Below are positions 13,720 to 52,293 of a stretch of DNA of 64,000 nucleotides, piece after piece. This DNA is from an uncultured Actinomycetes bacterium (lineage in GTDB: Bacteria > Actinomycetota > UBA4738 > HRBIN12): the NCBI GenBank assembly GCA_963749895.1, contig CAVVOG010000002.1, positions 94,511 to 158,510 of the forward strand. Direction: 5' to 3'. The position numbers and the translations under genes are program-made. The notes under the pieces are model-generated. The model did not search any database. It was not told the DNA's origin and saw only the letters and a program-made list of their open reading frames with translations. Position 1 is the first letter of the stretch, and each line of letters opens with the position of its first letter.

Positions 13720-14931
13720 ATGCGTCGACCTCTCGTCATCCTGTTGTTCGCGGCGATCTTCGTGGCGGAGATCGGGTGGTCCGGCGTGGCCCCCCTGATC
13801 CCGGACTTCCAGGATCGCTACGACCTGACCGAGACCCAAGCGGGACTCGTGTTCACGCTCGCGAGCCTCGGCATCTTGCTCGCGTCGCTCCCGGCCGGAG
13901 CGCTCAGCCGGCGGTTCGCGGTGCGGACGCTGACGCTCTGGGGGATGGCCTCGATCACGGTCGCGAACCTGCTGCTGGCGGTGGCCGAGACGTTCCCGGT
14001 CGTGCTCGCCGGACGCGTCTTCTTCGGGATCGGGCTCGGGATGATGTGGGTGACCGGGACCGCCTGGATCCACGCCGCAGCGGGTGACGCGGCGCCGCGG
14101 GCGCTCGCGATGACCACGGCCGTGGTGGGGGTCGGCGCGCTGATCGGTCCGGCGATCACCGGCGTCGTCGCGGAGCAACTCTCCCTGGGAGCCCCGTTCG
14201 TCGGGCTCGGCCTGGTCTCGGCGGCGATGACCGTCGCGCTCCTCCTGGCCCCGTCGCGCGTCGGGCGAACCCCGGAGCCGAGCCCCCCGCTCGCAGAGAT
14301 GCTCAAGGCCGTCGGCGTCGATCACCTGATGCTGACGAGCATCGTGCTCACGCTGGCCGTCTCGATGATGTGGATGACGAGCGACCTGCTGGTACCGCTG
14401 CGCCTGGACGAGCACGGCTTCTCCTCGTCGGGGATCGGCCTCGCGCTGTCGCTCGCGTCCGTGATGTTCGTCGGGGCGAGCGCCCTGACGGCGCGCCACG
14501 CCGAGCGCTACGCGACGATCCGCCTCTCAGCCGCGTGGACGCTGGCGATGGCGGCCGGGATCGCGGTGGGGGCGTCCGGCACGTCGACCGCCGCCACGCT
14601 CGTGTTCCTCGCGATCGCGGGCTCGACGTCCGGCGTGCTGATCGCGCTCACGTACCCGCTCGGCGTGACCGGCGCCGAGCGCGGGCACTTCTCGGTCGCC
14701 GTGGTCGGCGCGATCCTCAACATGGTCTGGGCCGGCGCCGGCCTCGTCGGTCCCGCGGCCGGCGGGGCGCTCTCCGAGGCCCTCGGAGATCAGGCCGCGT
14801 TCCTCGTCCTGGCCGTCATCGCCGTCGCGAGCGCCGCGTGGATGTGGCTGCGCCGAGACCGAGGCGCGGTGACGCCCGAACAGGCCGAGGCGGCGGCCGC
14901 CGCCGCCGCCGTGACCGAACACCCGCTCTGA
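13720..14931 (+). CDS. MFS transporter
   Basis: 12 hydrophobic segments; motif-A-like GALSRRFA; 403 aa. Confidence 0.9.
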   Translation: MRRPLVILLFAAIFVAEIGWSGVAPLIPDFQDRYDLTETQAGLVFTLASLGILLASLPAGALSRRFAVRTLTLWGMASITVANLLLAVAETFPVVLAGRVFFGIGLGMMWVTGTAWIHAAAGDAAPRALAMTTAVVGVGALIGPAITGVVAEQLSLGAPFVGLGLVSAAMTVALLLAPSRVGRTPEPSPPLAEMLKAVGVDHLMLTSIVLTLAVSMMWMTSDLLVPLRLDEHGFSSSGIGLALSLASVMFVGASALTARHAERYATIRLSAAWTLAMAAGIAVGASGTSTAATLVFLAIAGSTSGVLIALTYPLGVTGAERGHFSVAVVGAILNMVWAGAGLVGPAAGGALSEALGDQAAFLVLAVIAVASAAWMWLRRDRGAVTPEQAEAAAAAAAVTEHPL

Positions 14932-14935
14932 GCAG

Positions 14936-16556
14936 CTACGCGAGCGCCTTGCGCTTGCCCTTGTCCCGCAGGATCTCCCGCACGCAGTGGTGGCCGGGCA
15001 GACCCGTCACCCCACCGCCCGCGTGGGTCGCGCTCGACGCCTGGTACAGGCCGCGGATCGGCGTGCGGTAGTCCGCGTACTCGGGTGCCGGTCGCATGTG
15101 GAACAACTGATCGACCGCCAGCTCCCCGTGGAAGATGTTGCCCCCGATCAGGCTCCAGTCGTCCTGCATCTGCTTCGGCCCGATCACCTGCCGGTGGAGC
15201 ACCGAGGACTTGAACCCTGGCGCCACCGTGTCGATCCGGTCGACGAGCCGGTCGGCGTAGGCCTCGAGGTCGTCCTGGTGACCGTCCTCGTCGGCCCAGT
15301 CCGCGGGGACCCACTGGGAGAAGCACGACATCACGTGGATCCCCTCGGGCGCGAGCGTCCGGTCGAACACGGTCGGGAGCGCCGTGTCGCTGAACGGCAG
15401 CGTCGCCGCCTTCCCCGAACGAGCGTCCTGGAACGCGGTCTCGAGGTACTCGAGGTCGTCGAGGACCTGGATCGCACCCCCGTGGATCTGCGGGTCGTAG
15501 TCGGGGTCGGCCGCGAAGGTCGGCAGCTCGGACAGGGCCATGTTCGACCTTCACCGTGCCGCTGCGGGTGCGCCAGTGCTCGATGTCGCGCACGAACGTG
15601 TCCGGGAGCTCGCTCGGCGAGAGGTGCTGGAGGAACCCGATCTTCGGGTGGACCGTCGTGACGACGACCGGCGCCAGCAGCTCCTCGCCGTCGGTGAGCA
15701 CGACCCCGCGCACCCGATCGCCGGCCGTGATCACCCGGTCGACCTTCGCGTTCAACCGGAGCTCGGCGCCGTGGAAGACCGCGGAGTCGGCGCACGCCTT
15801 CCCGACCGCGCCCATCCCGCCCTCGGGGTAGCCCCACGACGAGATCTGGCCGTCGCCGACGTCGCCGACGGAGTGGTGCATCAAGACGTAGGCGGTCCCG
15901 GGCTCCTCGGGCCCGGCCCAGGTACCGATGATGCCGTTCACCGCCAGGAACCCCTTGAGCACCGGCGACTCGAACCACCGGTCGAGCAGGTCCGCCGCGC
16001 TCATCGTGAACAGCCGCGTGATGTCCGCCACCGTCTGCGCATCGATCTCCTTGCGGAGCATCCAGCCCAGCTGGGCGACGTCCTTGATGTCCTTCGGGTC
16101 GCGCGAGCCGACCGTCGGCGGCGTCTGCCACAGCATCGGCGACAGGATCGCGCCGATGCGTCCGATCCACTCCTCGTACGCGAAGTACGTATCGGCGTCA
16201 CGCTTCGAGAACCGCCCGATCGACTCGCGGGTCTTGTCCTCGTCCTCATGGCGGACGATCGACCCGTCGGGCAGCGGCAGGTATCCCAGGCCTTGCGGGA
16301 AGATCTTGTAGCCGAACCGCTCCAGCTGCAGGTCGCGTTGGATCGACGGCGGCATCAGGCTCATCACGTAGCTGAGCGTGGTGACCTTGATGTCAGGCGC
16401 CTCGGGCCACGGAGCCATCGTGTCGGCGGCGCCGCCCGGCTTGTCGCGCGCTTCCAGCACGACCACCCGCGCGCCGAACTTCGCGAGGTACGCCGCGGCG
16501 ATGCAGCCGTTGTGCCCGCCCCCGATCACGACGGCGTCGTAGACGTTCGCTCCCAT
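14936..16556 (-). CDS. Phytoene dehydrogenase-like FAD-dependent oxidoreductase, with apparent +1 frameshift near 15545
   Basis: IGGGHNG FAD motif, GYPEGGMG, GNIFHGEL, THAGGGVTG; an extra G between VKV and NMALSELP. Confidence 0.9.
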
Positions 16557-17519: not shown

Positions 17520-18101
17520 TCAGCCCTTGCAGGGATCGGCGCCGGCCCCGCAGAGCGTCACGTCGTAGCGCTCCGCCAACCGGGCGGCGAGCGCGCGGCG
17601 GTCGATGAACCCGAGCATGCCCTTGGCCTGGTCGAGCACGGCGGGATCGGTGGTCTCGGGCGGAAGCATGATCCGCTCGACCACGCACCCGCCCTCGAAC
17701 ACGTAGGTCCGGGTCTCCCCCGTTGCCGAGCTCGCCTGGAAGGCATCGGCGCCCACGGCGCGGGGGTCCGAGAAGGGCTCGCCCTGCGGGTCGCACGACG
17801 CGGTGAGATGCACCTCGATGACCCGTGAGGCGACGCCGACGACCGACGACGTCAGCCAGTACGTCGTGGAGTCCCTCCGGACGTCCTTGTCGAGGAAGCT
17901 CCAACCCGCCGGATACCCGGTGATGCAGGGGAGGCGGGTCGCGCTCTGGACCGACTGCGCGATCAGGATCATCGTCTCGTTCGCTTCGGAGCACAGCGGC
18001 TCCGTGCCGTGCGCGAAGGGGTTGTTCCCGTCCTGGGGTGGCGCGCACGCCGCGAGGACCCACGTCGCGACGAGCAACGAGATGGCGAGACGACGGCTCA
18101 C
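17520..18101 (-). CDS. Cys-rich lipoprotein, homologous to the C-terminal domain of 48505..50583
   Basis: Lipobox LAAC; AQSVQSATRLPC..PAGW; 6 further Cys; GTGA-coupled to the kinase fusion. Confidence 0.8.
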   Translation of the reverse strand: MSRRLAISLLVATWVLAACAPPQDGNNPFAHGTEPLCSEANETMILIAQSVQSATRLPCITGYPAGWSFLDKDVRRDSTTYWLTSSVVGVASRVIEVHLTASCDPQGEPFSDPRAVGADAFQASSATGETRTYVFEGGCVVERIMLPPETTDPAVLDQAKGMLGFIDRRALAARLAERYDVTLCGAGADPCKG

Positions 18102-19831
18102 AGGCCCGCCCCCAGGCTCGACCAGACGAACGACGCGGCGATCAGGACGCCGATCCCCGCCGCGACCGTGAGCCCCACGCGACGGAGGCTCCAACGCTGG
18201 ATCGAGATCGGCTCTCGCGGCGGGGCGAGCTCGCGGAAGCGTTCGGTCAGGCCTCGTCCGTCGGCCTTCACCGCGCGCTGCAGCTCAGTCGGGACGGCCA
18301 AGCCCTTGATCGCGGCGAACGCCTCCGCGATGTCGTCCGGGGTGAAGTACGCGAGCGCCCGCTGATAGACCCGTTCGGCATCGGTCCGAAGAGCCAAGGT
18401 CAGCATCATGTTCGCGAGGTCGACCGCCTGTCGCCACGGCGTGGGGCGGACCTCCAGGAAGAAGACGTCGATGTACTTCAGATGCCCGCGCTGGACCAGC
18501 AGGTTCGATGGCTTGATGTCGCGAGCCGCCAGCCCCTCGTCCCAGAGCTTGCGGACCATCGCGAGGCCCTCGTCGATGATCTCGTCGGTCACCTCGGCGT
18601 CGCCCAGCTCCTTCGCGTCCTCGAAGAAGCCCGTGACGAGCATGTACTCGCGATCGGGGGTGAGCTCCACGACCCCGTGGTTCGTCGCCACCGGGAACCC
18701 CACGTCGTCGAGGAGGCGCAGCGCGTAGTCCTCGTACTGGACCAGACGCCTGACGGAGCCGAACGGGACCTCGTCCTCGAGACGCCCGTACATGACCGTC
18801 CGGATGACCTTGTAGGAGCGATCCGAGCGTACGTGGCGCATCGTGTAGAGCTTCGCGAACAGGTGCTCGTCGAGCTCGGCGACCTTGATCCGCATCGGCG
18901 TGGAGGCACCGGAGCCCTCCTCGCCGAAGGGCTTGACGTCATCCACCGTGTAGCCGAGCTGATCGTGGACCGCCGCCACGATCGCCTCACCCCGGGCCCC
19001 CCCGAGATCCACGTGCGCCGCGTTCCCGCCCTTGTAGGCCACCGGCTCCACGTCGTCCGACGCGAAGAAGCGGAAGGCCGGGATCGCGAAGCTCGCCGCC
19101 AGCAGCACGCCGAACGCCACGTCGAGCGGGTGGCTCGCCCCGAGGTACACGCGGGACAGGCTGAGGGCGCCGATCAGCACGCCCGCCGCCCACGCGGCCC
19201 GCCGCCGGACCGGCCCGGAGGGCGCGAAGCAGTAGACGATCGAGATCATGGTGACGGCGAAGGTCGTCACGGCGATCGACGGAAGGGACGCGCCCCGCCA
19301 GTCGCCGACGATCTCCACCCCCATCGGACGCGGGCGGCCGATCGCATCGATCAGGATGACGGTCAGCCCGTCGACCACCACCAGGAGGCCGACGAACGTG
19401 AACAGGTGCCGCCAGCGCTTGAAGACCAGGAGCCCGATCAGGGTCGCGATCCTGAGCGCCCAGACCACCTCGGGTTGACCCAGCCGGTCGATGACGTTCA
19501 TCGCGGACGTGAGCCACGACGCACGGATGCTCGCGAACCACAGCACGATCGGCGACTCAAGCTGCTCGATCGTCCCATCCACCTCTCGGAAGACGACGAA
19601 CAGCCCGGTGACCACGGTCAGCAGCGCGAACGCCACCAGGAGGCGTCCCGAGCGACCGATCTCGCGCGGCAGCGGCGGTGGCTCACCCGACGGGCGACGA
19701 CGACCCATCCGGCCCTGCGGCACCTCGGACGTGGTCTCGATCGTCCTCTCCTCGACTCGGCGGAAGGGCTCCCGCGACGCCCTCGGCACGGACGTCCGGC
19801 GGAGCCTACCCAGGAGGCACAGCGGAGGCAA
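18098..19831 (-). CDS. PAP2-like membrane domain + protein-kinase-like domain fusion (start uncertain: 19831, 19789 or 19708)
   Basis: GRPRP, LPSIA, SRVYLGASHPLD; kinase motifs GEEGSGAS, FAKLY, ARDIKPSN, IDVFF; C-terminal TM. Confidence 0.85.
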   Translation of the reverse strand: MPPLCLLGRLRRTSVPRASREPFRRVEERTIETTSEVPQGRMGRRRPSGEPPPLPREIGRSGRLLVAFALLTVVTGLFVVFREVDGTIEQLESPIVLWFASIRASWLTSAMNVIDRLGQPEVVWALRIATLIGLLVFKRWRHLFTFVGLLVVVDGLTVILIDAIGRPRPMGVEIVGDWRGASLPSIAVTTFAVTMISIVYCFAPSGPVRRRAAWAAGVLIGALSLSRVYLGASHPLDVAFGVLLAASFAIPAFRFFASDDVEPVAYKGGNAAHVDLGGARGEAIVAAVHDQLGYTVDDVKPFGEEGSGASTPMRIKVAELDEHLFAKLYTMRHVRSDRSYKVIRTVMYGRLEDEVPFGSVRRLVQYEDYALRLLDDVGFPVATNHGVVELTPDREYMLVTGFFEDAKELGDAEVTDEIIDEGLAMVRKLWDEGLAARDIKPSNLLVQRGHLKYIDVFFLEVRPTPWRQAVDLANMMLTLALRTDAERVYQRALAYFTPDDIAEAFAAIKGLAVPTELQRAVKADGRGLTERFRELAPPREPISIQRWSLRRVGLTVAAGIGVLIAASFVWSSLGAGL

Positions 19832-19858
19832 CCGGCCGCTGAGCGGTGCAGGACCGCG

Positions 19859-20473
19859 TCACGCGGCGGATCCGCGGGGCAGTCTCAGGGCGATCGCCAC
19901 GGTCGCCCCCATCATCGTGCCGAGGGCGAGTCCGCCGAGCACGTCGAGCGGGTTGTGCGCGCCCAGATAGATCCGGGAGAACGCGACGAGCGCGACCACG
20001 AGCCACGGAACGATCCGCCAACGGCCGCGCAGGTAGGGCGTCACGACCCACGCGAGTCCGGTGACGAGCACGACGTGCCCGGATACGAACGAGACCCCCG
20101 AGTCGGGGGCACCTGCGCGGACCTCGACCACGGGCTCGGTGACCCCGGGGCGCTCCCGCTGGATGTCCAGCACGTTCCACACGAACCGCTCGGCGGCAAG
20201 CTTGCCCACCGTGATGAGGACCGCAGCGAGCGCCAACCACCACCGACGGAAGACCAGCGCCACGACCGCGACGATCGGCCCGACGAGCAGCACCCCCAGG
20301 AGCTGGGCGCCGTGCATCACGGGGGTCAGCGCGTCCGTCGACCCGTTGATCGCCCGGAAGATCGCCTGCTCCCACTCCGGGACGGTCCCGTGCCGTGCCA
20401 CCGACGCGGCCAGCCCGAACACGACGAGACCCGCCCCGATCGCCACCGCGCGGAGTCGCTGAACCGGATCCAC
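19859..20473 (-). CDS. PAP2 family phosphatase
   Basis: QRERP, SFVSGH, SRIYLGAHNPLD. Confidence 0.9.
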   Translation of the reverse strand: MDPVQRLRAVAIGAGLVVFGLAASVARHGTVPEWEQAIFRAINGSTDALTPVMHGAQLLGVLLVGPIVAVVALVFRRWWLALAAVLITVGKLAAERFVWNVLDIQRERPGVTEPVVEVRAGAPDSGVSFVSGHVVLVTGLAWVVTPYLRGRWRIVPWLVVALVAFSRIYLGAHNPLDVLGGLALGTMMGATVAIALRLPRGSAA

Positions 20474-20480
20474 GGCGCCC

Positions 20481-20490
20481 ATCGTAGGAT
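20481..20490. promoter_or_regulatory. Overlapping bidirectional -10 elements (TACGAT on minus, TAGGAT on plus)
   Basis: ATCGTAGGAT; each hexamer lies exactly 7 nt before an in-frame GTG (20473 minus, 20498 plus). Confidence 0.6.
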
Positions 20491-20497
20491 GCGCGCC

Positions 20498-21226
20498 GTG
20501 ACGACCACGCCCGCTCCCACCGCGCACCGCCCGCTCCTCGACGACCATCGCCGAGCCGCCCTGTACGCGACGCTCCTGCTGGCCGCGCTCGTGTTCATGG
20601 TGGTCGGTGTCGGGAAGCACCCGACCGTGGCCGCCCCCGAGACCACGATCCCGGCGATCGGCGAGATCGACGAGAGCGTCTACGACTCGATCGTCCCGCG
20701 CCGGAACGACATCCTCACCTCGGTGTTCAAGGCGTTCGACGTGACCGGCAAAGGCGTCGTGACGATCCCGCTTCGCATCGCGTTGGTCGCGATCTTGCTG
20801 GTCCGTCGCCGGTGGCCGGCCGCCGTCGCGTTCATGATCGCCTGGGCGACCTCGGAGATCGCGATCGAAGTGATGAAGGGGTACTTCCAGCGGGGCCGGC
20901 CCTCGCAAGCGCTGGTCGAGACGGTCGGGTTCTCCTTCCCGTCGGGCCACGCCACCGCCGGCGCGGCGATCGCCGTGGCGATCGTGTTCGCCTTCCTCAA
21001 GCCCGGTCACCGCCGGCGCGTGTGGGTCCTGTTCGCGGTCGTCTTCGCCTTCACGATGGCCTTCTCACGTGTGTACCTGGGAGCGCACTGGCTGTCTGAC
21101 GTCGTGACGGGCGTGCTGCTCGGTTCGATCTGCGCGATCGGGGGGTTCGCCCTGGTCGACGAGGTCCAGCACCGGCGTCACCGGCCGGACACGACCGAGC
21201 CGGTCGATCAGCCCGTGGCAGGCTGA
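20498..21226 (+). CDS. PAP2 family phosphatase (undecaprenyl-PP/PGP phosphatase-like)
   Basis: All three motifs intact: KGYFQRGRP, SFPSGH, SRVYLGAHWLSD. Confidence 0.92.
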   Translation: MTTTPAPTAHRPLLDDHRRAALYATLLLAALVFMVVGVGKHPTVAAPETTIPAIGEIDESVYDSIVPRRNDILTSVFKAFDVTGKGVVTIPLRIALVAILLVRRRWPAAVAFMIAWATSEIAIEVMKGYFQRGRPSQALVETVGFSFPSGHATAGAAIAVAIVFAFLKPGHRRRVWVLFAVVFAFTMAFSRVYLGAHWLSDVVTGVLLGSICAIGGFALVDEVQHRRHRPDTTEPVDQPVAG

Positions 21227-22332
21227 GCGTCGGCCTGTACGGCCTCGAGCTCCGCGGCGATCGACCCCGGCGGCGGCGTGTCGCGCAGCCAGCCCTTCTT
21301 CCCGCGCCAGATGAAGTACGTGACCGCGCCGAGCGGGATCTGCAGACCGTAGGTGAGGACGCGGAAGACAAGGACGCCGGCCACGATCTCGGCATGCTCG
21401 CCGTTGTCGATCGCGGTGAGGCCGCCGATGTAGCCGAGGTCGATCACCCCGGCACCGCCCGGCGTGATCGGGACCGCCGAGAGCAGCCGGCTGAACGTGT
21501 AGATCGCGAAGATCTCGACCGTCGAGACGTCCTGCTCCGACACCCCCATGTGCCGCAGCGACAACACGAGGACGAAGCACAGCGCCACCTGGCTGAGGAT
21601 CGTGGTCAAGGTCAACCGGATCCAGCGTCGGTTGACGAGGATGATCGTCTCCCGGCGGAACTTCACCGTCTTGTCGCCCATCCCCTCGACCGGCGGCTTG
21701 CGCACCACCTTCAGGAGGGCGGAGAAGACGCGGCCCAGCAGCTCGCCGACCTTTCGGGCCATGTCCTCGCTCTTGAAGACCAGCACCAGAAGGACCACGG
21801 CCCCGATCAAGATCGCCGCGCCGATCAGCGCGGCCGTGACCAGCCCCGGGTTCGTGTTGCCGGTGACTACGAGCAGCACGAGGGCGATCATCGGCATCCC
21901 CAACTTCGCGAAGATGTTCCAGATGCCCGTCACGCCGACGTACAGCGTGATCTCGCCAGCCGTGAAACCCCACGAGTTCAGCATGGCGGCGCTCACGCCG
22001 ATCGCGAGGGCGCCGCCGGCCGGCAGGGTGTTCGCGACGGTGGTGCTGGTCTGGGTGACGACCGCGGACTGCCCGAGCGACATGCCCATCAAGGCGGCCT
22101 GGTTCGCCAGCCAGTAGGTGTAGAGGTTGAACACCATCGCCGCCATCAGCGTCCAGAACTCGAGCGGCGTGAGGGTCCTCATCGCGTCCCAGACCTCGCC
22201 GTAGTCGGCGAACTTCGGGATCGCGACGGTGAAGATCAGGATGACGACGGCGATGCCGAAGACGAACGCCACGATCTGACCGGGCGAGATCTTCCTCTTC
22301 GTCTTCTCGGGCGTCGCGGGTCCGTCCGTCAC
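21208..22332 (-). CDS. UPF0104 / lysylphosphatidylglycerol synthase TM-domain (flippase-like) protein
   Basis: ANTLPAGG, AVPITPGGAGVID and VLVFRVLTY motifs. Confidence 0.85.
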   Translation of the reverse strand: MTDGPATPEKTKRKISPGQIVAFVFGIAVVILIFTVAIPKFADYGEVWDAMRTLTPLEFWTLMAAMVFNLYTYWLANQAALMGMSLGQSAVVTQTSTTVANTLPAGGALAIGVSAAMLNSWGFTAGEITLYVGVTGIWNIFAKLGMPMIALVLLVVTGNTNPGLVTAALIGAAILIGAVVLLVLVFKSEDMARKVGELLGRVFSALLKVVRKPPVEGMGDKTVKFRRETIILVNRRWIRLTLTTILSQVALCFVLVLSLRHMGVSEQDVSTVEIFAIYTFSRLLSAVPITPGGAGVIDLGYIGGLTAIDNGEHAEIVAGVLVFRVLTYGLQIPLGAVTYFIWRGKKGWLRDTPPPGSIAAELEAVQADAQPATG

Positions 22333-22383
22333 GGCGCCGGACGATATCACGCTGCCCTGATCAGGAGGCCATGCGATCAGGTC

Positions 22384-22914
22384 TCACCAGGTGCTCGCCG
22401 TCGCCATCGAGGCCACCGACAGCACCAGGAGCGAGAGCGCGACACGGCCGGCGACCTTGAGCGCCCCCTGGCGGCGGGCGATCTCGGCGCCCTGCTCGGG
22501 GGTCGGTGGGGCGCCGCTCTCGGCGACCTGCCGCTGGAGCGCCATCATCGCCCGCACGTTCGGTCGGGTGACGAACATCCCGATCGAGGCCGCTGCGATC
22601 GCGGCGACCATGCCGATCGTCAGGGCCAGCCCGTAGCCGGTGCCCACGAACCCGCCGAACGACGACGCGTCGGTCGCCAGCTTCACGTACATCACGAGCC
22701 CCGCGACGATCGTGATCCCCGCGAGCAGCAGGAAGCGATCGACGAGCTTCCGGACGCCGAGCAGTTGCCCCATCATCGGCCCGGCGGCCGGGCCGATCGC
22801 CGCCGCGCTCGGCTGCAGGAAGACGACGAACAGGAACACGCCACCGACCCACGCGGCCCCCGCGAGGATGTGGATCAGGCGGAACACGAACCAGAACGGC
22901 TCGAGACCGAGCAT
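22384..22914 (-). CDS. 4-TM membrane protein (CopD/DUF2269-like)
   Basis: RLIHILAGAAWVGG N-terminal motif. Confidence 0.7.
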   Translation of the reverse strand: MLGLEPFWFVFRLIHILAGAAWVGGVFLFVVFLQPSAAAIGPAAGPMMGQLLGVRKLVDRFLLLAGITIVAGLVMYVKLATDASSFGGFVGTGYGLALTIGMVAAIAAASIGMFVTRPNVRAMMALQRQVAESGAPPTPEQGAEIARRQGALKVAGRVALSLLVLSVASMATASTW

Positions 22915-23044: not shown

Positions 23045-23359
23045 GTGACGGTCGTGCCCGAGGCGATCTTGGATGAAGCGGCGCACCGGTTCGCGCTGCT
23101 CGGCGACCCGACGCGGCTCCGGCTCGTGAGCGTCCTGCACGAGCGGGGGCCCTGCACGGTCGGCGAGCTGACCGAGGCGACCGGAGGCACGATGCCCAAC
23201 GTCTCGCAGCACCTCGCCCGGCTGGCCCGCGGCGGTATCGTGAAGCGCAAGCGCGAAGGACGGTCCGTCCGGTACTGGATCGCCGACCCGACGATCGAGG
23301 ACCTGTGCACGATCGTGTGCGCCAGCGTCCGGGACCGGGCCGAGGTCCTGTCGAGGTGA
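23045..23359 (+). CDS. ArsR/SmtB family regulator
   Basis: LGDPTRLRL, NVSQHLARL, C-terminal LCTIVC. Confidence 0.92.
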   Translation: MTVVPEAILDEAAHRFALLGDPTRLRLVSVLHERGPCTVGELTEATGGTMPNVSQHLARLARGGIVKRKREGRSVRYWIADPTIEDLCTIVCASVRDRAEVLSR

Positions 23360-23363
23360 CCCG

Positions 23364-24965
23364 GTGAGCGAAGGCTACGGCGGCGTGCTCGGCGCGGTGG
23401 TGGACACGCCCGGCGACGTCGACCTGCTCGAACACGCCTCCACGAGCGGTCGCGCGCCGCGGATGGTCAAGGTGATCGACCAGTCGCGGTGCATCGGGTG
23501 TCACGCGTGCACCACCGCCTGCAAATCCGAGAACGAGGTCCCCCTCGGCGTCACCCGCACGTACGTGAAGTACGTCGACGTCGGGGTGTTCCCCCAGGCG
23601 CGCCGCGCCTTCCAGGTGACCCGGTGCAACCAGTGCGTCGACGCCCCGTGCGTGGCGGCCTGTCCGACCGCGGCGATGCATACGCGTGACGACGGCATCG
23701 TGGACTTCGACAAGAGCGTCTGCATCGGGTGCAAGGCGTGCATGGCCGCCTGCCCCTACGACGCGATCTTCATCAACCCCGACGACCACTCAGCGGAGAA
23801 GTGCAACTTCTGTGCGCATCGCCTGGACGTCGGCCTGGAGCCGGCGTGCGCCGTGGTCTGTCCGGTCGAGGCGATCTTGGTCGGCGACGTCCACGACCCG
23901 TCGTCGAAGGTGGCGGCGATCGTCGAGCGCGAGCCCGTCACGGTCCGCCGCCCCGAGAAGGAGACGAAGCCGAAGCTCTTCTACAAGGGTGCCACCCAGG
24001 CGACGCTCGACCCGATCGCGGCGCGCCGACCCGAGGGCGGCATCTTCATGTGGTCCGAACAGCCGAGCGGTCCCCACACGGTGACCTCGGGCCACCCCGG
24101 TGATCCCGCGAACTCATCGGCGGCCGCCGTGCTCGCCTACGACGTGGCGCACTCGGCGCCGTGGGACTGGCGGGTCAGCCTCTACACGTGGACGAAATCG
24201 ATCGCGGCCGGCGCGTACCTGGTGCCGCTGCTGCTGATCGTGATCGGCGCCCTGTCGTGGTCGTCGTGGCTGTGGACCTGGGCGGCACCGGTCGTCGGCC
24301 TGCTCTTCCTGGCGATCACCGGTGGCCTGCTCGTGTGGGACCTGGAGCACCCCACCCGCTTCTACATGATCTTCACCCGGCCGCAGTGGCGATCGTGGCT
24401 GGTGCGGGGTGGGTTCATCATCCTGGGCTACGGCGCGGTGCTGTCCCTGCACCTCCTTGCCACGATCGCCGGGCTCGACGACGTACCCGGCTGGCTCGCG
24501 TGGGCGGGTGCCCCCCTGGCGCTCCTGGCCGCCGTCTACACCGCCTACCTGTTCGCGCAGTCGAAGGCACGGGACCTGTGGCAGAGCCCGCTGCTGGCAC
24601 CGCACATCGCCGTGCAGGCCGGGCTCCTCGGAGGCGCCGTGATGCTGCTGCTCGCCGTGGCCGCCGACCAGACGGCCACGGGGATCGACGCCCTGGAGTG
24701 GCTCGTTGCCGTCGCGGCGGGGCTCCACCTCCTGTCGGTGCTCGGGGAGATCACGCTCGCCCACCCCACCGCGCACGCGCACCTGGCCGCGTGGGAGATG
24801 ACGAGCGGCCGGTACGGCGCGTTCTTCCGCATCGGCATCGTGTCGGTGGCGGCCGGGCTCCTGGCGCCGGTCGCCGGGTGGTGGGTCGCCCCGCTCGCCC
24901 TCGCGGGTCTGCTGGCCCACGAGCACGCGTACGTCCAGGCCGGCCAGTCCGTCCCGCTCGCATAG
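23364..24965 (+). CDS. Fused 4x[4Fe-4S] (NrfC/PsrB-like) and NrfD/PsrC membrane anchor
   Basis: CIGCHACTTAC, CNQC..PCVAACP, CIGCKACMAACP, KCNFC..CP; then PWDWRVSLY and DLEHPTRFY. Confidence 0.92.
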   Translation: MSEGYGGVLGAVVDTPGDVDLLEHASTSGRAPRMVKVIDQSRCIGCHACTTACKSENEVPLGVTRTYVKYVDVGVFPQARRAFQVTRCNQCVDAPCVAACPTAAMHTRDDGIVDFDKSVCIGCKACMAACPYDAIFINPDDHSAEKCNFCAHRLDVGLEPACAVVCPVEAILVGDVHDPSSKVAAIVEREPVTVRRPEKETKPKLFYKGATQATLDPIAARRPEGGIFMWSEQPSGPHTVTSGHPGDPANSSAAAVLAYDVAHSAPWDWRVSLYTWTKSIAAGAYLVPLLLIVIGALSWSSWLWTWAAPVVGLLFLAITGGLLVWDLEHPTRFYMIFTRPQWRSWLVRGGFIILGYGAVLSLHLLATIAGLDDVPGWLAWAGAPLALLAAVYTAYLFAQSKARDLWQSPLLAPHIAVQAGLLGGAVMLLLAVAADQTATGIDALEWLVAVAAGLHLLSVLGEITLAHPTAHAHLAAWEMTSGRYGAFFRIGIVSVAAGLLAPVAGWWVAPLALAGLLAHEHAYVQAGQSVPLA

Positions 24966-24975
24966 GAAGACGCCG

Positions 24976-27897
24976 ATGACCGAACCCCACGACCTCGACC
25001 GCCTCGCCGAACGGGTCAGCGCCGCGAAGGAGGCGACGTTGGCCCGGGGCGAGACCTTCTATCCGGGCCCCAGCCGCGTCCACCTCGCGTCGTTCCCGCC
25101 CAAGGAGCGCTGGGACGACTGGGTCGAGCTCGACCCGAAGGCCTGGCCCAGGAAGGTCGAACGGCGCTCGATGCTCGTGCCGACGACCTGCTTCAACTGC
25201 GAGTCGGCATGCGGGCTGCTGGCCTACGTCGACCCCGAGACCCTCCAGGTCCGCAAGTTCGAGGGGAACCCGGAGCACCCGGGCTCGCGGGGCCGCAACT
25301 GCGCGAAGGGGCCCGCCACGCTGAACCAGATCACCGACCCCGACCGGATCCTCTACCCGCTCAAGCGCACGGGCGAGCGCGGCGGCAACGACTGGGAGCG
25401 CGTGTCGTGGGACGACGCGCTCGACGACATCGCCGCCAGGATCCGAGCCGCGATCGTCGAGGACCGTCAGACCGAGGTGATGTACCACGTCGGCCGGCCC
25501 GGCGAGGACGGCTTCACCGAACGGGTCCTGGCATCGTGGGGCGTCGACGGCCACAACTCGCATACGAACGTGTGCTCCTCGGGCGCGCGGGCCGGCTACC
25601 ACTTCTGGACCGGGATCGACCGCCCGAGTCCCGACCATGCGAACGCCGACGTGATCCTGCTGATCTCCTCGCACCTGGAGGCCGGCCACTACTTCAACCC
25701 GCACGCGCAGCGCGTGATGGACGCGAAGGAGCGCGGCGCGAAGCTGATCGTGTTCGACACGCGTCTGTCCAACACGGCCACCCACGCCGACGAGTGGGTT
25801 GCGCCGTGGCCGGGCACCGAGCCGGCGATCCTGCTGGCGGTGGCGAACCACCTCCTACAGACCGGCACGTACGACCGGGACTTCATCCGCCGCTGGTGGA
25901 ACTGGCAGGAGTACCTGCGAGCGGAGCGTCCGGGCGAGCCCGAGACCTTCGAGCGGTTCGAGGAGATCCTGCGTGACCTCTACACGGACTTCACGTTCGA
26001 GGCGGCGGCCAAGGAGTCGGGCATCGACGCCGCCCAGATCGAACGGGTGGCGCGGATCGTGGCGACGGCCGGCACCCGACTGTCGACGCACTCGTGGCGC
26101 TCCGCCGCGGCCGGCAACCTCGGTGGCTGGCAGGTCTCGCGCACGCTCTTCTTCTTGAACGCCCTGCTCGGCGCCGTCGCGGTGCCTGGCGGGACCTACC
26201 CGAACGCCTGGAACAAGTTCGTGCCGAAGCCGATCCACGTGCCCCCGCACCCGCACGTGTGGAACGAGCTCACCTGGCCGCTGGAGTATCCGCTGGCGCT
26301 GAACGAGCTGTCGTTCCTGCTCCCCCACTTCCTCAAGGAGGGACGCGGACGCCTCGAGGTCTACTTCTCCCGCGTCTACAACCCGGTGTGGACGAATCCC
26401 GACGGCTTCTCGTGGATCGAGGTCCTCACCGACCCCGAGAAGGTCGGCCTGCACGTCGCACTCACGCCCACCTGGAACGAGACCGCGTTCTTCGCGGACT
26501 ACGTGTTGCCGACCGGCGTGGGCTCCGAGCGCCACGACCTGCACTCGTACGAGCAGTACGACGGGCAGTGGATCGGGTTCCGCCAGCCGGTGCTGCGGGC
26601 CGCGCGCGAGCGTCTCGGCGAGACCGTCGAGGACACCCGTGACGCGAACCCCGGCGAGGTCTGGGAGGAGAACGAGTTCTGGATCGAGCTGTCGTGGCGG
26701 ATCGACCCCGACGGCTCGCTCGGGATCCGGCAACACCACGAGTCGAAGGCCGAGCCCGGCACGAAGCTCTCTGTCGACGAGTACTACGGCTGGATCTTCG
26801 AGCACTCCGTCCCCGGGCTCCCCGAGGCCGCCGCGGCCGAGGACCGCACACCCCTCGAGTACATGCGCCGCTACGGGGCCTTCGAGGTCCGCGAGAACGT
26901 CGGTCCCGTCTACACGCGGGAGGTCCCGACCGAGGAGCTCGAGGACGTCCACGTGACCGACCTCGGCCGCGTCTACACCCGCGCGCCGAAGCCCGACGAT
27001 CCGAACATCGTCCCGATGGGCGGACCTGAACCTGACGGCGAAGGGCGCCGACCGGTCGGGGTCGAGGTCGACGGCACCGTCCTCCGCGGGTTCCCGACCC
27101 CGAGCGGCAAGCTCGAGTTCTGGTCCCGGACGCTCGCGGAGTGGGGGTGGCGTGAGCACGCGCTGCCGGGCTACATCCGCAGCCACGTCCACCCGCAGCA
27201 CATGGAGGACGGGCAGATGCCGTTGATCTCGACGTTCCGTCTGCCGGTGCAGATCCACACGCGCAGCGCGAACGCGAAGTGGCTCGACGAGATCGCGCAC
27301 ACGAACCCGCTGTGGCTCCACACGAGCGACGCGACACGGCTCGAGGTCCGGACCGGCGACCTGGTGCGGGTCGAGACCCAGACCGGCCACTTCGTGGTGA
27401 AGGCGTGGGTGACCGAGGGCATCCGTCCTGGTGTCGTCGCGTGCAGCCATCACATGGGCAGATGGAAGCTGCACGACACCGGGCAGCGGCAGATGATGGC
27501 GACGGTCGCGCTCGAGCACGAGGGGGATAGCTGGGCGATGTCGCGGAAGACCGGCGCCCGGCCCTACGCCTCCGACGATCCCGACACGTCGCGGATCTGG
27601 TGGACGGACGTGGGCGTGCACCAGAACCTCACGTTCGGCGTGCATCCCGACCCGATCTCGGGCCAGCATTGCTGGCACCAGGCGGTCCGCGTGCGGAAGG
27701 CCGAGCCCGGCGACGCGTACGGCGACATCTCGGTCGACACCGATCGGGCGCACGAGGTCTATAAGGAGTGGCTGACCCTCGCCAGGGACGCGCGGAGCGT
27801 CTCTCCCGACGGCACCCGGCGGCCCTACTGGCTGATGCGCCCCCTGAAGCCGGGCAAGGACGTGTTCCGCCTCGACACGGGGGCACCGGCACCGTGA
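24976..27897 (+). CDS. Mo/W-bis-MGD oxidoreductase catalytic subunit (Psr/Sre/Soe-like), no Tat signal
   Basis: FS0 motif CFNCESAC..NCAKG, RILYPLKR, Cys ligand in SHTNVCS, GFPTPSGKLEF. Confidence 0.92.
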   Translation: MTEPHDLDRLAERVSAAKEATLARGETFYPGPSRVHLASFPPKERWDDWVELDPKAWPRKVERRSMLVPTTCFNCESACGLLAYVDPETLQVRKFEGNPEHPGSRGRNCAKGPATLNQITDPDRILYPLKRTGERGGNDWERVSWDDALDDIAARIRAAIVEDRQTEVMYHVGRPGEDGFTERVLASWGVDGHNSHTNVCSSGARAGYHFWTGIDRPSPDHANADVILLISSHLEAGHYFNPHAQRVMDAKERGAKLIVFDTRLSNTATHADEWVAPWPGTEPAILLAVANHLLQTGTYDRDFIRRWWNWQEYLRAERPGEPETFERFEEILRDLYTDFTFEAAAKESGIDAAQIERVARIVATAGTRLSTHSWRSAAAGNLGGWQVSRTLFFLNALLGAVAVPGGTYPNAWNKFVPKPIHVPPHPHVWNELTWPLEYPLALNELSFLLPHFLKEGRGRLEVYFSRVYNPVWTNPDGFSWIEVLTDPEKVGLHVALTPTWNETAFFADYVLPTGVGSERHDLHSYEQYDGQWIGFRQPVLRAARERLGETVEDTRDANPGEVWEENEFWIELSWRIDPDGSLGIRQHHESKAEPGTKLSVDEYYGWIFEHSVPGLPEAAAAEDRTPLEYMRRYGAFEVRENVGPVYTREVPTEELEDVHVTDLGRVYTRAPKPDDPNIVPMGGPEPDGEGRRPVGVEVDGTVLRGFPTPSGKLEFWSRTLAEWGWREHALPGYIRSHVHPQHMEDGQMPLISTFRLPVQIHTRSANAKWLDEIAHTNPLWLHTSDATRLEVRTGDLVRVETQTGHFVVKAWVTEGIRPGVVACSHHMGRWKLHDTGQRQMMATVALEHEGDSWAMSRKTGARPYASDDPDTSRIWWTDVGVHQNLTFGVHPDPISGQHCWHQAVRVRKAEPGDAYGDISVDTDRAHEVYKEWLTLARDARSVSPDGTRRPYWLMRPLKPGKDVFRLDTGAPAP

Positions 27898-43937: not shown

Positions 43938-44123
43938 CCACACCGTGCAGCCGTCCTTCGGCGTCCCGATGGGGCTCGACCTCGTCGGGACGCCGTAGGC
44001 ATCGCCGCGCTCGTCGATGCATGACCCCCAGACTCCGGAGCGGCTCCGGAGAGCCGCTGGCGCCCGGAGCACGATGCGCGTAGGGTCAGCCGACCGTCGT
44101 CGGACAGCGGGCAAGGGGGGGAC

Positions 44124-46277: not shown

Positions 46278-46286
46278 GGAGGGAAC

Positions 46287-48504: not shown

Positions 48505-50583
48505 CTACGGACACGGTGGAGCCAGCACGCCGCACAGCACCTGGTCCTCGTCTTCGGCCACGGCGGCGATGAGGTCTGCCCTCGGTGTGAACTTGAGCCC
48601 CCCACCCGGTGAGAACGACGGGACGTTCGCGCCGGTGACCGACCGACGGTAGGACACGCAGACCCTGCCGAGCGGGAGTTGCTGCGTCCCAGCTGTGGGA
48701 GCAGGACAGGAGTCGGTGAGGGTCACGGTCACGGCCTCGGTTCCCTGGATGCCGAGGCTGAAGACGGCCCGTCCGCGGACGGTCTCGGCCGTCACCACGC
48801 CCCACCCATAGGGCAGATCACCGACGCACGGCAGTCGCGTGGCCTCCGGTACCGCCTGCGCCATCAGCTGCATCGCCTGCCCCGTCCCGCACCCCGGCGC
48901 GGTCACGGTGCCTCGTGTGGGGAAGAACAGCCCCACGGCCATCAGCCCGGTGAGCAGGGCGAGCACCAGGTATCCGATCATCATCACGACCCGTCGGATG
49001 CTCCAGCGCTGGATCGAGATCGGCCGGCGTCCCGGGGCCATCGAACGGAACTCGGCCAGGAGGTCTCGGCCGTCCTGCTTCACGTGCTGGCGCAGCTGCG
49101 TCGGGCTCGCGACCCCCCGCGTCGCCGCGAAGGCCTCCGCCAGCTCGTCGGGGCTGAAGTAGCGGAGCGCAGCCTGGTACACGGTCGGCGCGTCCGACCG
49201 GAGCGCCAGGACGAGCATCATGTTCCCGAGGTCCACGGCCTGCCGCCACGGAGAAGGCCGGACCTGCACGAAGAACACGTCGATCAGCTTCAGCTCGCTG
49301 CCCCGCACCATCAGGTTCGCCGGCTTGATGTCGCGGTGGGCGAGCCCCACGTCCCACATCTGCCGGATCAGCGCGAGTCCCTGGTCGATCAGGTGCTCGT
49401 CCACCTGGGCGTCCCCGATCTCGACGGCCTCGTCGAAGAACTCCATCGCGATCAGGTACTCGCGTTCCGGCGTGATCTCGGCGATGCCGAGCGGCGCCGG
49501 GGTCGGGAACCCGTACTCACCCAGCATCCGCAGGGTGTAGTCCTCGTACTCGACGAACCGACGGACGGTCTGGAACGGCGTCTCGTCCTCGAGGCGCCCG
49601 TAGAGCATCGTGCGGCCAAGCTTGTACCAGCGGTCGGCGCGGACGTGGCTCTTCGCGTAGAGCTTCGCGAAGATCGCCCGCCGGTGTCCGTCCTCGTCCG
49701 TCACGGTGAGCTTCAGAGGGGTCGAGCCACCGGAGCCCTCGAGCCCGACCGGCTTCAGGTCGTGCACCGTGAACCCGAGCTGGTCCTGGAGCGCGGCACG
49801 GATCGCCTCGCCCCGTCGGCCGCCGACGTCGAGGTGCGCGGCCTTACCGCGCGCCCCGTAGCGGACCGGGAAGACGTCGTTCGGGGCGAACGCCCGGAAG
49901 GCGGCGAGCGGGATCGCGACGCCGACGATCGCACCGAACGCCACATCGGTGAAGTGGTCCACCCCGAGGTAGATCCGCAGGACCCCGGTGACGACGATCG
50001 CACCGGTCGCGGCGAGCTTCGCCCACCAGCGTGGTCGGCCTGGAACGACGAGCATGTAGGCGACGCCGATCGCGAGGATCGCGGTCGCACCGCTCGGGAT
50101 CGACGGGGTCGCGTAGCCCTCCCATGCCGCCAGCTGGTGGACGCCGAACGGTCGCGGCCGCAGCGCGACGAGCTCGAGTCCCTGCAGGAGGGCGCCGGCG
50201 AACCCGAGCGAGACCATCCAGATCACGAGATGCCGCCATCGGCGGAACCACGCGGTCGCGACGACGAGCAGCACCCCCAGCGCCGCGAACCCGACCCGCG
50301 ATCCCAGCGTGTGGGTCTTGCGGGCGACCGCGTCGAGCCACCCCGTTCGGAGCCGGATCACGCCCTCGGTGATCCGCGCGTCGAACCGGTCCAGCGGCGA
50401 GGAGTCGATCCGCAGCCACACGCACCCGGTGACGACCACGGCCAGCAGGAGGATCACCCAGATCCAGCCCGTGTACCCGATCTGCTTGGGCAGCGGTGGG
50501 GGGGCGCCCGTCGGCCGACGACGACGGCGCGTGGAGACCACCGCGTCGGCCGACGGGCGTACCACCTCGTCACGCTGGTCCAT
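48505..50583 (-). CDS. PAP2-like + protein-kinase-like + extracellular Cys-rich domain fusion
   Basis: LRPRP, TPSIP, LRIYLGVDHFTD; GLEGSGGS, FAKLY, HRDIKPAN, IDVFF; TM followed by AQAVPEATRLPC. Confidence 0.88.
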   Translation of the reverse strand: MDQRDEVVRPSADAVVSTRRRRRPTGAPPPLPKQIGYTGWIWVILLLAVVVTGCVWLRIDSSPLDRFDARITEGVIRLRTGWLDAVARKTHTLGSRVGFAALGVLLVVATAWFRRWRHLVIWMVSLGFAGALLQGLELVALRPRPFGVHQLAAWEGYATPSIPSGATAILAIGVAYMLVVPGRPRWWAKLAATGAIVVTGVLRIYLGVDHFTDVAFGAIVGVAIPLAAFRAFAPNDVFPVRYGARGKAAHLDVGGRRGEAIRAALQDQLGFTVHDLKPVGLEGSGGSTPLKLTVTDEDGHRRAIFAKLYAKSHVRADRWYKLGRTMLYGRLEDETPFQTVRRFVEYEDYTLRMLGEYGFPTPAPLGIAEITPEREYLIAMEFFDEAVEIGDAQVDEHLIDQGLALIRQMWDVGLAHRDIKPANLMVRGSELKLIDVFFVQVRPSPWRQAVDLGNMMLVLALRSDAPTVYQAALRYFSPDELAEAFAATRGVASPTQLRQHVKQDGRDLLAEFRSMAPGRRPISIQRWSIRRVVMMIGYLVLALLTGLMAVGLFFPTRGTVTAPGCGTGQAMQLMAQAVPEATRLPCVGDLPYGWGVVTAETVRGRAVFSLGIQGTEAVTVTLTDSCPAPTAGTQQLPLGRVCVSYRRSVTGANVPSFSPGGGLKFTPRADLIAAVAEDEDQVLCGVLAPPCP

Positions 50584-50782
50584 CGAACCTCCTCCGCAGG
50601 GATCCTCGCACGATCGGATCGCCGCGAGGAACCTCTACGACTCGGATCGCAGACATCACCTCACGCGGTTCGATCCCACGCCCGGCACGTAGCCACGCAC
50701 CCAGGCTCCCGGGGACTCACGGGTTGCGCACCACGTCGCCTGCTGTCAGGCTCGGCGCCCGGACCATCGAACAGGGGGGTCG

Positions 50783-51640: not shown

Positions 51641-51737
51641 CCCCCGTCAGGGTCCCGCGATGGTTGGGACCTCCGGCCTCAGGTCCGTCGAGCACCCCCC
51701 GTAGGGTGATGCCACCGGTTCCGGTGAGAGGTGGACG

Positions 51738-52274: not shown

Positions 52275-52293
52275 CGATCAGGAGGAACGAACG

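Follow-up and report, generated by a model that had tools for sequence, protein, structure and literature searches.

A PAP2-kinase fusion protein with a split-off ectodomain and lipid-handling neighbours in an uncultured actinobacterium: a candidate receptor-like kinase

A five-gene cluster around a PAP2-kinase fusion

The window considered here, meaning the whole stretch of 64,000 nucleotides of contig CAVVOG010000002.1 from an uncultured actinobacterium, contains at positions 17520-22350 a cluster of five genes, including one for a membrane protein in which a PAP2 fold is joined to a kinase-like domain. The G+C content of the window is ~70%, which gives rise to many spurious open reading frames (ORFs), and genes were picked by the third-position G+C content of each frame together with the ORF list. 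This procedure supports the five clustered genes described in a first-pass annotation of the same DNA, and chance clustering could be dismissed because the same gene set recurs around homologues. The cluster encodes a lipoprotein of 193 amino acids (17520..18101, minus strand; read from its translation), the PAP2-kinase fusion of 536 amino acids (18098..19708, minus strand), two stand-alone PAP2 proteins, PAP2-A (19859..~20482, minus strand) and PAP2-B (20489..21226, plus strand), and a UPF0104/LPG_synthase_TM flippase-like membrane protein of 380 amino acids (21208..22350, minus strand). The fusion gene stands as first called, except that its start is moved from an ORF beginning at 19831 to the ATG at 19708, which retains the conserved N-terminal motif of the family.

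Both stand-alone PAP2 genes have the intact motifs previously ascribed to them, with the strand of PAP2-B corrected to plus. PAP2-A (50.2 bits with the Pfam PAP2 model) carries FVSGH as motif C2 and SRIYLGAHNPLD as motif C3, and PAP2-B (72.5 bits) carries FPSGH and SRVYLGAHWLSD, respectively. The start of PAP2-A is uncertain, the ATG at 20482 being a candidate; the candidate starts of the two genes are divergent with only ~6 nucleotides between them, and PAP2-B converges on the UPF0104 gene. In NCBIfam, PAP2-A shows a weak likeness to undecaprenyl-diphosphatases, far under the cut-offs, and PAP2-B gives partial, sub-threshold matches to SepP and PgpB; by tblastn, PAP2-B is 34% identical to the PAP2 domain of the fusion. 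The UPF0104 product, rightly recognized at first pass as flippase-like, matches PF03706 with 72.7 bits (cut-off 33.4) over profile positions 2-302 of 302, is sub-threshold for TIGR00374 (38.2 bits, cut-off 43.2), and reaches 47.6 bits with NF033480 (bifunc_MprF), for which the cut-off is 600. It consists of the transmembrane (TM) region alone, with no aminoacyl-phosphatidylglycerol synthase domain.

A contig from a DNA run joins position 19611 directly to 21243, skipping 1631 bases that hold PAP2-A and most of PAP2-B; its shorter side has only 24 letters, and the contig may derive from a relative. A match to PAP2-A is also missing by tblastn at the closest related locus, L001. In addition, contigs from two metatranscriptome libraries match the lipoprotein gene at 17766-17916 with 0 differences, a contig matches the 5′ end of the fusion gene at 19574-19724 with 1 difference, and the PAP2-A/B region is covered at 20420-20847, with 0-1 differences overall; a third RNA run gave no match to the module. 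These traces point only weakly to expression, since the contigs are short, may stem from carried-over DNA, and in no case bridge two genes.

The fusion protein is composed, in order, of a cytoplasmic motif RRRPSGEPPPLP, a six-helix PAP2 fold, a kinase-like domain, and a C-terminal TM helix (508-533). The N-terminal motif is at least 90% conserved in the family, and its pattern is found in 89 of 120 database proteins, many of the non-matching ones having short start calls; at its variable position, most copies have Ser, and a second paralogue encoded in the window has Thr (RRPTGAPPPLP). An AlphaFold model obtained from a 44-row alignment (pLDDT 79.9) shows six membrane helices and one outer amphipathic helix, a poorly modelled linker at 219-232, and the kinase-like domain at ~238-500, which is tethered to the membrane at both ends. 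The Pfam PAP2 score of the fusion, 26.9-27.1 bits, lies just below the cut-off of 27.2, and 41 of 44 family members match the same model at E <= 0.01. Foldseek aligns the N-terminal part of the model with Bacillus subtilis PgpB (5jki) with a TM score of 0.77 and an rmsd of 3.2 over 200 columns, and a search of the PDB with the family profile finds the same structure at E 4.9e-11. The N-terminal part is thus predicted to have the PAP2 membrane fold.

In active PAP2 enzymes, motif C1 reads KxxxxxxRP, and the C1 Arg, C2 Ser, and C3 Arg contact the phosphate. The fusion retains RPRP at 125-128 and has no Lys seven residues earlier; PSIA at 143-146 (SLPSIAV) replaces PSGH in C2; and SRVYLGASHPLD replaces SRxxxxxHxxxD in C3, with S192 at the position of the His, followed by H193 and D196. 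The degenerate motifs PSIA and SRVYLGAS noticed at first pass are therefore all present, as are the kinase motifs. Conservation was counted over 117 aligned homologues, where adding 24 to the alignment numbering gives that of the 536-residue protein. Motif C2 reads S-x-P-S followed by Arg (54), Ile (23), or Pro (13) and then by Pro (81) or Ala (27), so that none of the 117 has the catalytic His there, and 112 of 117 have Asp (86), Ser (19), or Glu (7) in place of the C3 His. Arg101/103, Ser120, and Arg162 (alignment numbering) are kept. Among the 87 fusion copies at the related loci described below, none has SGH, none has Kx6RP, and four match Rx5Hx3D. From these sequences, the PAP2 domain of the fusion is most probably catalytically dead across the family.

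It could still be proposed that the fusion is a bifunctional enzyme, the PAP2 domain of which acts as a phosphatase through H193, shifted by one residue. A His stands one residue past the canonical C3 position in 88 of the 117 homologues, and the protein retains D196 together with the Arg and Ser residues that bind phosphate. However, the C2 His is gone in every homologue and the C1 Lys is lost as well, and the C3 His must be displaced by one helical position because the Asp stays in register. The ectodomain described in the next section is also predicted to cover the C1 loop. Moreover, active PAP2 genes are kept alongside the fusion, or fused to the dead domain in the relative P0270, which suggests that the dead copy is not the source of phosphatase activity. 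Activity through a shifted His, raised at first pass as a way in which the domain might remain a phosphatase, is accordingly considered very improbable.

The kinase-like domain and the split-off ectodomain

The kinase-like domain contains a G-loop (GEEGSGASTP, 262-271), FAK (K286), the catalytic loop ARDIKPSN (D397, K399, N402), and IDVFF (D414). Family-wide, these motifs read GxEGSGGSTP, FAK, (H/A)RD(I/V)KP(A/S)N, and ID(V)F, and the residues K262, D373, K375, N378, and D390 of the alignment numbering are present in all 117 homologues. As for ATP binding, which the first-pass proposal requires, these invariant positions include the nucleotide-binding as well as the catalytic residues. The catalytic loop is HRD(I/V/L)KP(A/S)N or ARD(I/V)KPSN in 118 of 120 proteins, the remaining two being one SRDIKPSN and one outside the pattern; an HRDxKxxN loop is the signature of protein Ser/Thr kinases. 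In the AlphaFold model, only eight residues separate DVF (414-416) from a helix that starts at 424, which leaves the fusion kinase without an activation segment, in line with the first-pass reading that this segment and the APE motif are absent.

Foldseek relates the C-terminal part of the model to CaMKK2, RIO kinases, Kae1-Bud32, PknB, and APH(3′) at E ~3e-6 to 4e-5. The family profile finds the Bud32-like chain 8k20_B (E 2.8e-4) and TTK (E 3e-4) in the PDB, and a single-sequence search with the kinase part gives marginal matches only, the best being 8k20_B at E 0.022, with Rio2 also matched. The fusion scores 16.9 bits with PF00069, below the gathering score of 31.7, and the Pkinase model matches 35 of 44 family members at E <= 0.01 (best E 1.7e-6). 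Under the same threshold, RIO1 matches 27 of the 44 members, APH 22, and Kdo 12, and none of these three models matches the fusion of the window. It seems from the sequences that the domain has a kinase fold, keeps its chemistry intact, and fits cleanly into none of the curated families, since the model matches are split among Pkinase, RIO1, APH, and Kdo. Its catalytic loop presumably differs from the loops of RIO and Bud32.

These matches bear on the idea that the domain is a nucleotide-driven switch or scaffold, namely a Bud32- or RIO-like ATPase that gates or assembles the PAP2 and UPF0104 proteins with no separate phospho-acceptor. The best sequence-level matches to solved kinases are indeed the Bud32-type chain and Rio2, the RIO1 model is matched by more than half of the members, the activation segment is missing, and the AlphaFold model has an extra helix between strand 3 and helix C, where RIO kinases carry an insertion. 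However, K399 and the entire phosphotransfer set are invariant and a pure switch would need none of them, and the transcription-factor modules fused in some relatives are explained no better than by signalling. We consider such a switch to be improbable.

The lipoprotein has a lipobox L-A-A-C with Cys19 and six further conserved Cys residues in its mature domain; its signal, M/V-SRR-LAISLLVATWVLAAC, was read by eye from the sequence. The GTG start of its gene overlaps the TGA stop of the fusion gene as GTGA, and the two are probably translationally coupled. About one-seventh of the listed homologues of the fusion are ~735 amino acids long, with no Pfam match in the extra C-terminus. By BLASTP, the lipoprotein is similar to the C-terminus of relatives of 731-734 amino acids (E 4e-22 and 3e-20, 34-36% identity), a homology that the first-pass annotation had missed. 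The lipobox Cys is missing from the fused forms, which have a TM helix in its place, and the mature ectodomain carries the motif AQSV(P/Q)SAT..PC. Judging from this similarity, the lipoprotein would be an ectodomain split off from longer members of the family. A frameshift artefact behind the split could be dismissed because of the lipobox, the GTGA overlap, and 41 loci with the split form. Neither the lipoprotein nor a 143-aa membrane protein has any Pfam or NCBIfam match.

The AlphaFold model of the ectodomain (pLDDT 90.4, pTM 0.86) has BT_1490, MTC28, LpqN, and 3lyd as its top structural matches in VIA-align, followed by PsbP, Mog1, Tsi3, and DcrB. The Z scores to 3hlz, 4pws, 6e5d, and 3lyd are 8.5, 8.5, 8.4, and 8.3 (rmsd 3.0-3.3 over 111-113 residues), which is middling for a tool with which a best Z of 7-8 is typical. 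Foldseek gives nothing at E <= 1e-3, the best match being RseB at 1.8e-3. The ectodomain may have a Mog1/PsbP-like sandwich fold.

A complex model of the fusion with the mature lipoprotein has an ipSAE of 0.69 (runs 0.70, 0.65, and 0.69), compared to a best value of 0.01 among three controls; the runs share at least 83% of contacts, and the partner pLDDT is at least 80. Of solved complexes, 58 of 80 pass the ipSAE mark, as do 2 of 110 mismatched pairs; this calibration holds only roughly here because our own alignments were used. On the side of the fusion, the predicted interface involves residues 38-62 and 121-140, including the RPRP remnant of C1, and on the side of the ectodomain it involves the most conserved helix, AQSVxSAT (24-34), and the C-terminus. 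Both surfaces are extracytoplasmic in the predicted topology, which serves as an independent check that was not supplied to the prediction. The models thus support binding, and in them the ectodomain sits on the outside of the dead PAP2 domain, over its degenerate active-site loops. To our knowledge, there is no solved complex of this kind. Furthermore, the ectodomain diverges more than the kinase, with a mean column identity of 43% versus 65%.

Conserved neighbours, paralogues and fusions in relatives

A scan of one genome per species yielded 592 matching stretches, 548 of which encode a relative of the fusion, and the neighbourhoods of the best 80 loci were analysed by tblastn with the proteins of the window. 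All 80 are from metagenome-assembled genomes, mostly labelled Actinomycetota, Acidimicrobiia, or Ilumatobacteraceae, the exceptions being one Armatimonadota, one Methylomirabilota, and one plain 'uncultured bacterium'. Where at least 800 nucleotides downstream were available, the ectodomain follows directly in 65 of 77 loci (as a separate gene in 41 and in frame in 24, two of these in-frame calls being doubtful because of very long open frames) and is absent from 12. The 47 loci with at least 5 kb on both flanks have the ectodomain in 43, a stand-alone PAP2 gene within 4 kb in 40, UPF0104 within 5 kb in 30, and all three in 29. Conservation of the neighbourhood had been set beforehand as a test of the first-pass proposal, and the neighbourhood proves to be conserved. 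The commonest order is fusion, ectodomain, PAP2 of the B type, and convergent UPF0104, PAP2-B being the type most frequent downstream of the ectodomain. Seven loci carry a second fusion paralogue. Among the 79 stand-alone PAP2 segments at these loci, 74 have SGH and Rx5Hx3D and 71 have all three motifs, the exceptions lying mostly at contig ends or in merged frames.

In about one-third of the loci, ORF clustering with a Pfam check places the module between truB/DHH/rbfA/infB/nusA and ribF/rpsO/pnp, on the opposite strand; these include L013, L015, L021, L023, L027, L031, and L037-L039. PNPase is found in 28 loci and IF-2 in 26. The module is stable in position, unlike a mobile element. The setting of the module in the window itself differs from this nusA-infB-truB/ribF-rpsO-pnp region.

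The family is large. At least 7147 database proteins match at E <= 1e-3, and a search with only the kinase domain gives 993, 665, and 290 representatives (clusters at 50% identity; 1.84 billion searched) at E <= 1e-3, 1e-10, and 1e-30, respectively. In the ESM Atlas, the only clusters found were those of the family itself, under the name 'PAP2 superfamily/RIO domain-containing protein'. In an even sample of 401 genomes of the phylum, a tally that takes in two unpublished genomes (G239 and G120) on which nothing else here depends, 51 have a match at E <= 1e-10, and these are concentrated in the family of the window (17 of 22 genomes) and in a second family (20 of 21). For a single genome, as many as six matches are listed. 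The genome from which the window derives (3.1 Mb, 98% complete) has two strong copies. The second, which was missed at first pass, lies at 48505..50583 on the minus strand and encodes a long form of 692 amino acids (49% identity and E 4e-153 in a search of the own genome; supported by tblastn and translation). Its ectodomain is fused after the C-terminal TM helix, and its PAP2 motifs are also dead (LRPRP, TPSIPS, and LRIYLGVDHFTD). No PAP2 or UPF0104 gene was found beside it by tblastn or among the neighbouring ORFs.

N-terminal fusions were surveyed among the best 150 family representatives of the kinase search. A STAND NTPase with tetratricopeptide repeats (TPR) precedes the PAP2-kinase unit in 5 of 150 (P0253, P0259, P0262, P0269, and P0367), and a receiver domain precedes it in 2 of 150 (P0289 and P0312), of which P0312 also has a LuxR-type helix-turn-helix. 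In P0270 (924 amino acids), an active PAP2 domain (KSWTDRPRP, FPSGH, and SRVYLAAHWFSD) is followed by RRRPSG, a dead PAP2 domain, the kinase, the TM helix, and the ectodomain. The juxtamembrane motif is retained in P0270, P0289, and P0312, those that were read. At L012:9429-11981, the open frame continues beyond the ectodomain into further sequence, which is, from its motifs, a candidate ABC1/UbiB-type atypical kinase.

More distant relatives of ~800 amino acids combine PAP2, kinase, and LPG_synthase_TM in a single chain, and their kinase is 25-30% identical to that of the family (E 1e-12 to 1e-19). A triple-fusion query matched 536 proteins at E <= 1e-3 among 8000 scored candidates, and the three Pfam domains occur together in nearly all of the 120 listed matches. 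Nocardia species and Mycolicibacterium are among the named records, so the actinobacterial kinase-UPF0104 fusions suggested at first pass do exist. Of these 120 matches, 114-115 have intact PAP2 motifs and 109 have DFG; the catalytic loop takes the form HRDLRxAN, and each of its 12 listed variants (117 of 120) has Arg where the Lys would stand. The neighbours of two triple-fusion genes are unrelated (SNF2, LigD, GH1, and FtsH) and therefore give no clue to a pathway.

These relatives are of particular relevance to the proposal that the protein is a kinase of a lipid, or of a lipid-linked sugar, in a modify-and-flip pathway. The membrane-tethered kinase would phosphorylate an inner-leaflet lipid, UPF0104 would flip the product, an active PAP2 would remove or transfer the phosphate outside, and the dead PAP2 and ectodomain would be lipid-binding or scaffold parts. 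A model for the UPF0104 step is the flippase domain of MprF, which flips lysyl-phosphatidylglycerol. The single-chain PAP2-kinase-UPF0104 proteins, mostly with intact PAP2 motifs and DFG, favour such a pathway, as do the joining of an active PAP2 to the dead PAP2-kinase-ectodomain unit in P0270, the conserved PAP2 and UPF0104 neighbours, the kinase anchored in the membrane at both ends, and the absence of an activation segment, as in APH and the Kdo/WaaP-type kinases, the APH and Kdo models of which are matched by 22 and 12 of the 44 members. On the other hand, the catalytic loop is of the Ser/Thr type in 118 of 120 proteins, the receiver/LuxR and STAND-TPR fusions are hard to square with a metabolic enzyme, there are several diverging paralogues per genome, and the second paralogue of the window has no adjoining PAP2 or UPF0104 gene. 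We regard a lipid kinase as a doubtful explanation, albeit one to be taken seriously.

A bolder and rather unlikely version is that the kinase, UPF0104, and PAP2 work together as a relay of lipid phosphate driven by ATP. At the inner leaflet, an enzyme with a protein-kinase fold would phosphorylate a polyprenyl phosphate, some other lipid, or a lipid-linked head group, which UPF0104 would flip, and the phosphate would be spent outside by PAP2. The PAP2 step could make the translocation one-way or supply phosphoryl groups to extracytoplasmic acceptors, in the way that LpxT uses undecaprenyl diphosphate. In the fusion family, one PAP2 would then have died and become, with the ectodomain, a regulatory or lipid-holding subunit.

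A possible receptor-like kinase and its relation to known systems

The explanation that we prefer, with a probability of roughly 45%, is that the module constitutes a receptor-like Ser/Thr-type kinase, the outer sensor of which is formed by the dead PAP2 domain and the Mog1/PsbP-like ectodomain, and which is tied to lipid-phosphate turnover. It starts from what was observed, namely how the domains are arranged, which motifs are dead and which intact, that the neighbourhood is conserved, that fusions occur, and that docking is predicted. Outside, the dead PAP2 domain, which keeps the phosphate-contacting Arg and Ser residues and has lost the catalytic His pair, would bear the disulfide-rich ectodomain on its degenerate active-site loops. 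Inside, the membrane-held kinase, with a complete ATP-binding and phosphotransfer apparatus and the Ser/Thr-type HRDxKxxN loop, would respond to this outer assembly, which may sense a lipid phosphate or the state of the active PAP2 and UPF0104 proteins encoded nearby. These neighbours could carry out lipid-phosphate dephosphorylation and flipping, for example in the turnover of polyprenyl phosphate or phospholipid phosphate. The kinase would then phosphorylate a cytoplasmic protein, candidates being its own juxtamembrane RRP(S/T)GEPPPLP tail or the regulators fused in some relatives. In this scheme, we infer what is bound, which protein is phosphorylated, and which way the signal runs.

The receptor kinase is preferred because the catalytic loop is of the Ser/Thr type, the layout is like that of a receptor, the ectodomain diverges faster, and there are families of paralogues; what counts most is that receiver/LuxR and STAND-TPR modules, which are signalling parts, are fused to it in some relatives. 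The first-pass annotation had set a lipid (de)phosphorylation and flipping cycle beside a receptor kinase that uses a dead phosphatase as a lipid-phosphate sensor. The second of these has been strengthened by the fused or split ectodomain, its predicted docking, and the signalling-module fusions, and the first has also gained from the triple fusions.

Several points weigh against a receptor kinase. Neither an activation segment nor a P+1 loop nor APE, which hold peptide substrates in canonical protein kinases, could be found in the sequence or model, and a missing activation segment is common to small-molecule kinases and RIO/Bud32. The Pfam kinase scores stay under the gathering thresholds, and the structural likeness of the ectodomain is of middling Z. 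Unbiased ORF clustering found neither FHA nor PP2C genes as conserved neighbours, and all conserved partners are lipid-handling proteins. The single-chain PAP2-kinase-UPF0104 proteins fit an enzymatic pathway at least as well as signalling. Of the possible substrates, the N-terminal tail of the fusion is not confidently docked (pLDDT <50 for residues 1-17 in the AlphaFold model), and the Ser of the N-terminal motif is missing from P0289. Finally, the support for a receptor kinase comes from sequences and models. It is the absence of an activation segment and of FHA/PP2C neighbours, together with the purely lipid-handling company and the pathway-like triple fusions, that keeps a lipid kinase alive as an explanation.

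The proposed receptor kinase shares several features with the PknB/PASTA kinases, which are also membrane-spanning and combine an extracytoplasmic ligand-binding part with a cytoplasmic kinase; most members of the present family have an HRD(I/V)KPAN-like catalytic loop, and PknB (1mru_A) is among the Foldseek matches at E 1.9e-5. However, the present family has neither activation segment nor APE and lies below the Pkinase cut-off of Pfam, its kinase is flanked by a six-helix PAP2 fold and a C-terminal TM helix, and its sensor would be a dead phosphatase with a Mog1/PsbP-like domain rather than PASTA. With the RIO, Bud32, and Kdo/WaaP kinases, the domain has in common a short link from the DFG equivalent to the next helix with no activation loop, as well as the modelled extra helix before helix C and the best PDB matches (a Bud32-like chain and Rio2). 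It differs from them in the Lys of Ser/Thr protein kinases in the catalytic loop, in its membrane-embedded position, and in scores near or below the family cut-offs, and no ribosome, KEOPS, or LPS context was seen at these loci.

Among membrane enzymes, PgpB, BcrC, and LpxE/LpxT share the six-helix PAP2 fold with the fusion and the full motifs with PAP2-A and PAP2-B, whereas the PAP2 domain of the fusion has lost Lys from C1, His from C2, and the canonical His from C3. MprF belongs to the same LPG_synthase_TM family as the neighbouring gene, and in the distant relatives LPG_synthase_TM is likewise fused to a cytoplasmic enzyme-like domain; here, however, there is no aminoacyl-phosphatidylglycerol synthase domain, and the partner is a kinase fold with PAP2. 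The triple fusions of Nocardia and Mycolicibacterium, recorded as 'lysylphosphatidylglycerol synthase domain-containing protein', have a homologous kinase and link the same three functions, but differ in their intact PAP2 motifs, HRDLRxAN loop, retained DFG, fused UPF0104 domain, and lack of an ectodomain.

The nearest analogue in layout is MviN of Mycobacterium tuberculosis, which is reported to have a MurJ-type membrane domain, an intracellular pseudokinase unable to bind ATP, and an extracellular domain (PMC12599244). Both proteins run from a polytopic lipid-carrier domain through a kinase fold and a TM helix to an ectodomain, and in both one of two catalytic-type domains is dead. The roles are swapped, however, since in the present family it is the membrane enzyme fold that is dead and the kinase that is intact, and the membrane fold is PAP2 rather than MurJ. 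No FhaA/PknB link was seen here.

The first-pass statement that no characterized system has this layout agrees with our literature search, which found none, nor any functional study of PAP2-kinase-UPF0104 proteins, nor, supplements being outside its scope, any description of PAP2 combined with RIO, kinase, flippase, or UPF0104. In the Lipocone preprint, PAP2 comes up in other contexts only, and the main text of a preprint on an atlas of bacterial Ser/Thr kinases contains no PAP2, phospholipid, or flippase term, although its supplements may list such a family. Rv0585c, which had been put forward as a possible example of a kinase-UPF0104 fusion, is given in the literature consulted as a conserved integral membrane protein with nothing more stated, and one paper lists it among proteins of MmpL-linked lipid export. 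The parts of the system are known folds, whereas a pseudo-phosphatase as the outer half of a kinase appears to be undescribed.

The family is thus large and fixed in position in many lineages, yet has no described function. If the receptor kinase is real, it would be the first PAP2-type pseudo-phosphatase serving as the outer part of a bacterial receptor kinase, and it would link Ser/Thr-type signalling directly to the turnover of envelope lipid phosphates. The triple-fusion relatives occur in culturable Mycobacteriales, which makes the question open to experiment, and they may provide a first functional context for many UPF0104 proteins other than MprF.

Some other genes of the window were also recorded. 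A membrane protein of 176 amino acids (22384..22914, minus strand) lies 34 nucleotides upstream of the UPF0104 gene; it has no Pfam or NCBIfam match, its homologue was found by tblastn only in L001 among the 80 loci, and its membership of the module is doubtful. Upstream of the cluster, 14790-16556 (minus strand) encodes an FAD-dependent oxidoreductase of the amine-oxidase/phytoene-desaturase-like type, with Pfam matches on 15551-16556. Its sequence becomes Arg/Pro-rich after ~330 residues and the frame 14936-15550 (minus strand) has a third-position G+C content of 0.95, which looks like a frameshift, either real or due to an assembly error. Divergent from the second fusion paralogue is a gene for a polytopic membrane protein of 315 amino acids with no Pfam match (50693-51640, plus strand). 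At 23045-27897 (plus strand), a putative ArsR-like small regulator, read from the sequence, is followed by a 4Fe-4S dicluster-NrfD-type fusion and a molybdopterin oxidoreductase of 973 amino acids. A SulP permease fused to STAS and a cyclic-nucleotide-binding domain is encoded at 44025-46892 (plus strand), and a second, truncated SulP N-terminus of 204 amino acids comes directly after the SulP-STAS fusion. Finally, 51705-53721 (plus strand) encodes an NrfH/NrfA-like pair, here in the genome of an actinobacterium: a tetrahaem cytochrome of the NapC/NirT type (PF03264, E 2e-14) and, after it, a cytochrome c552 nitrite reductase (PF02335, E 1.8e-121).

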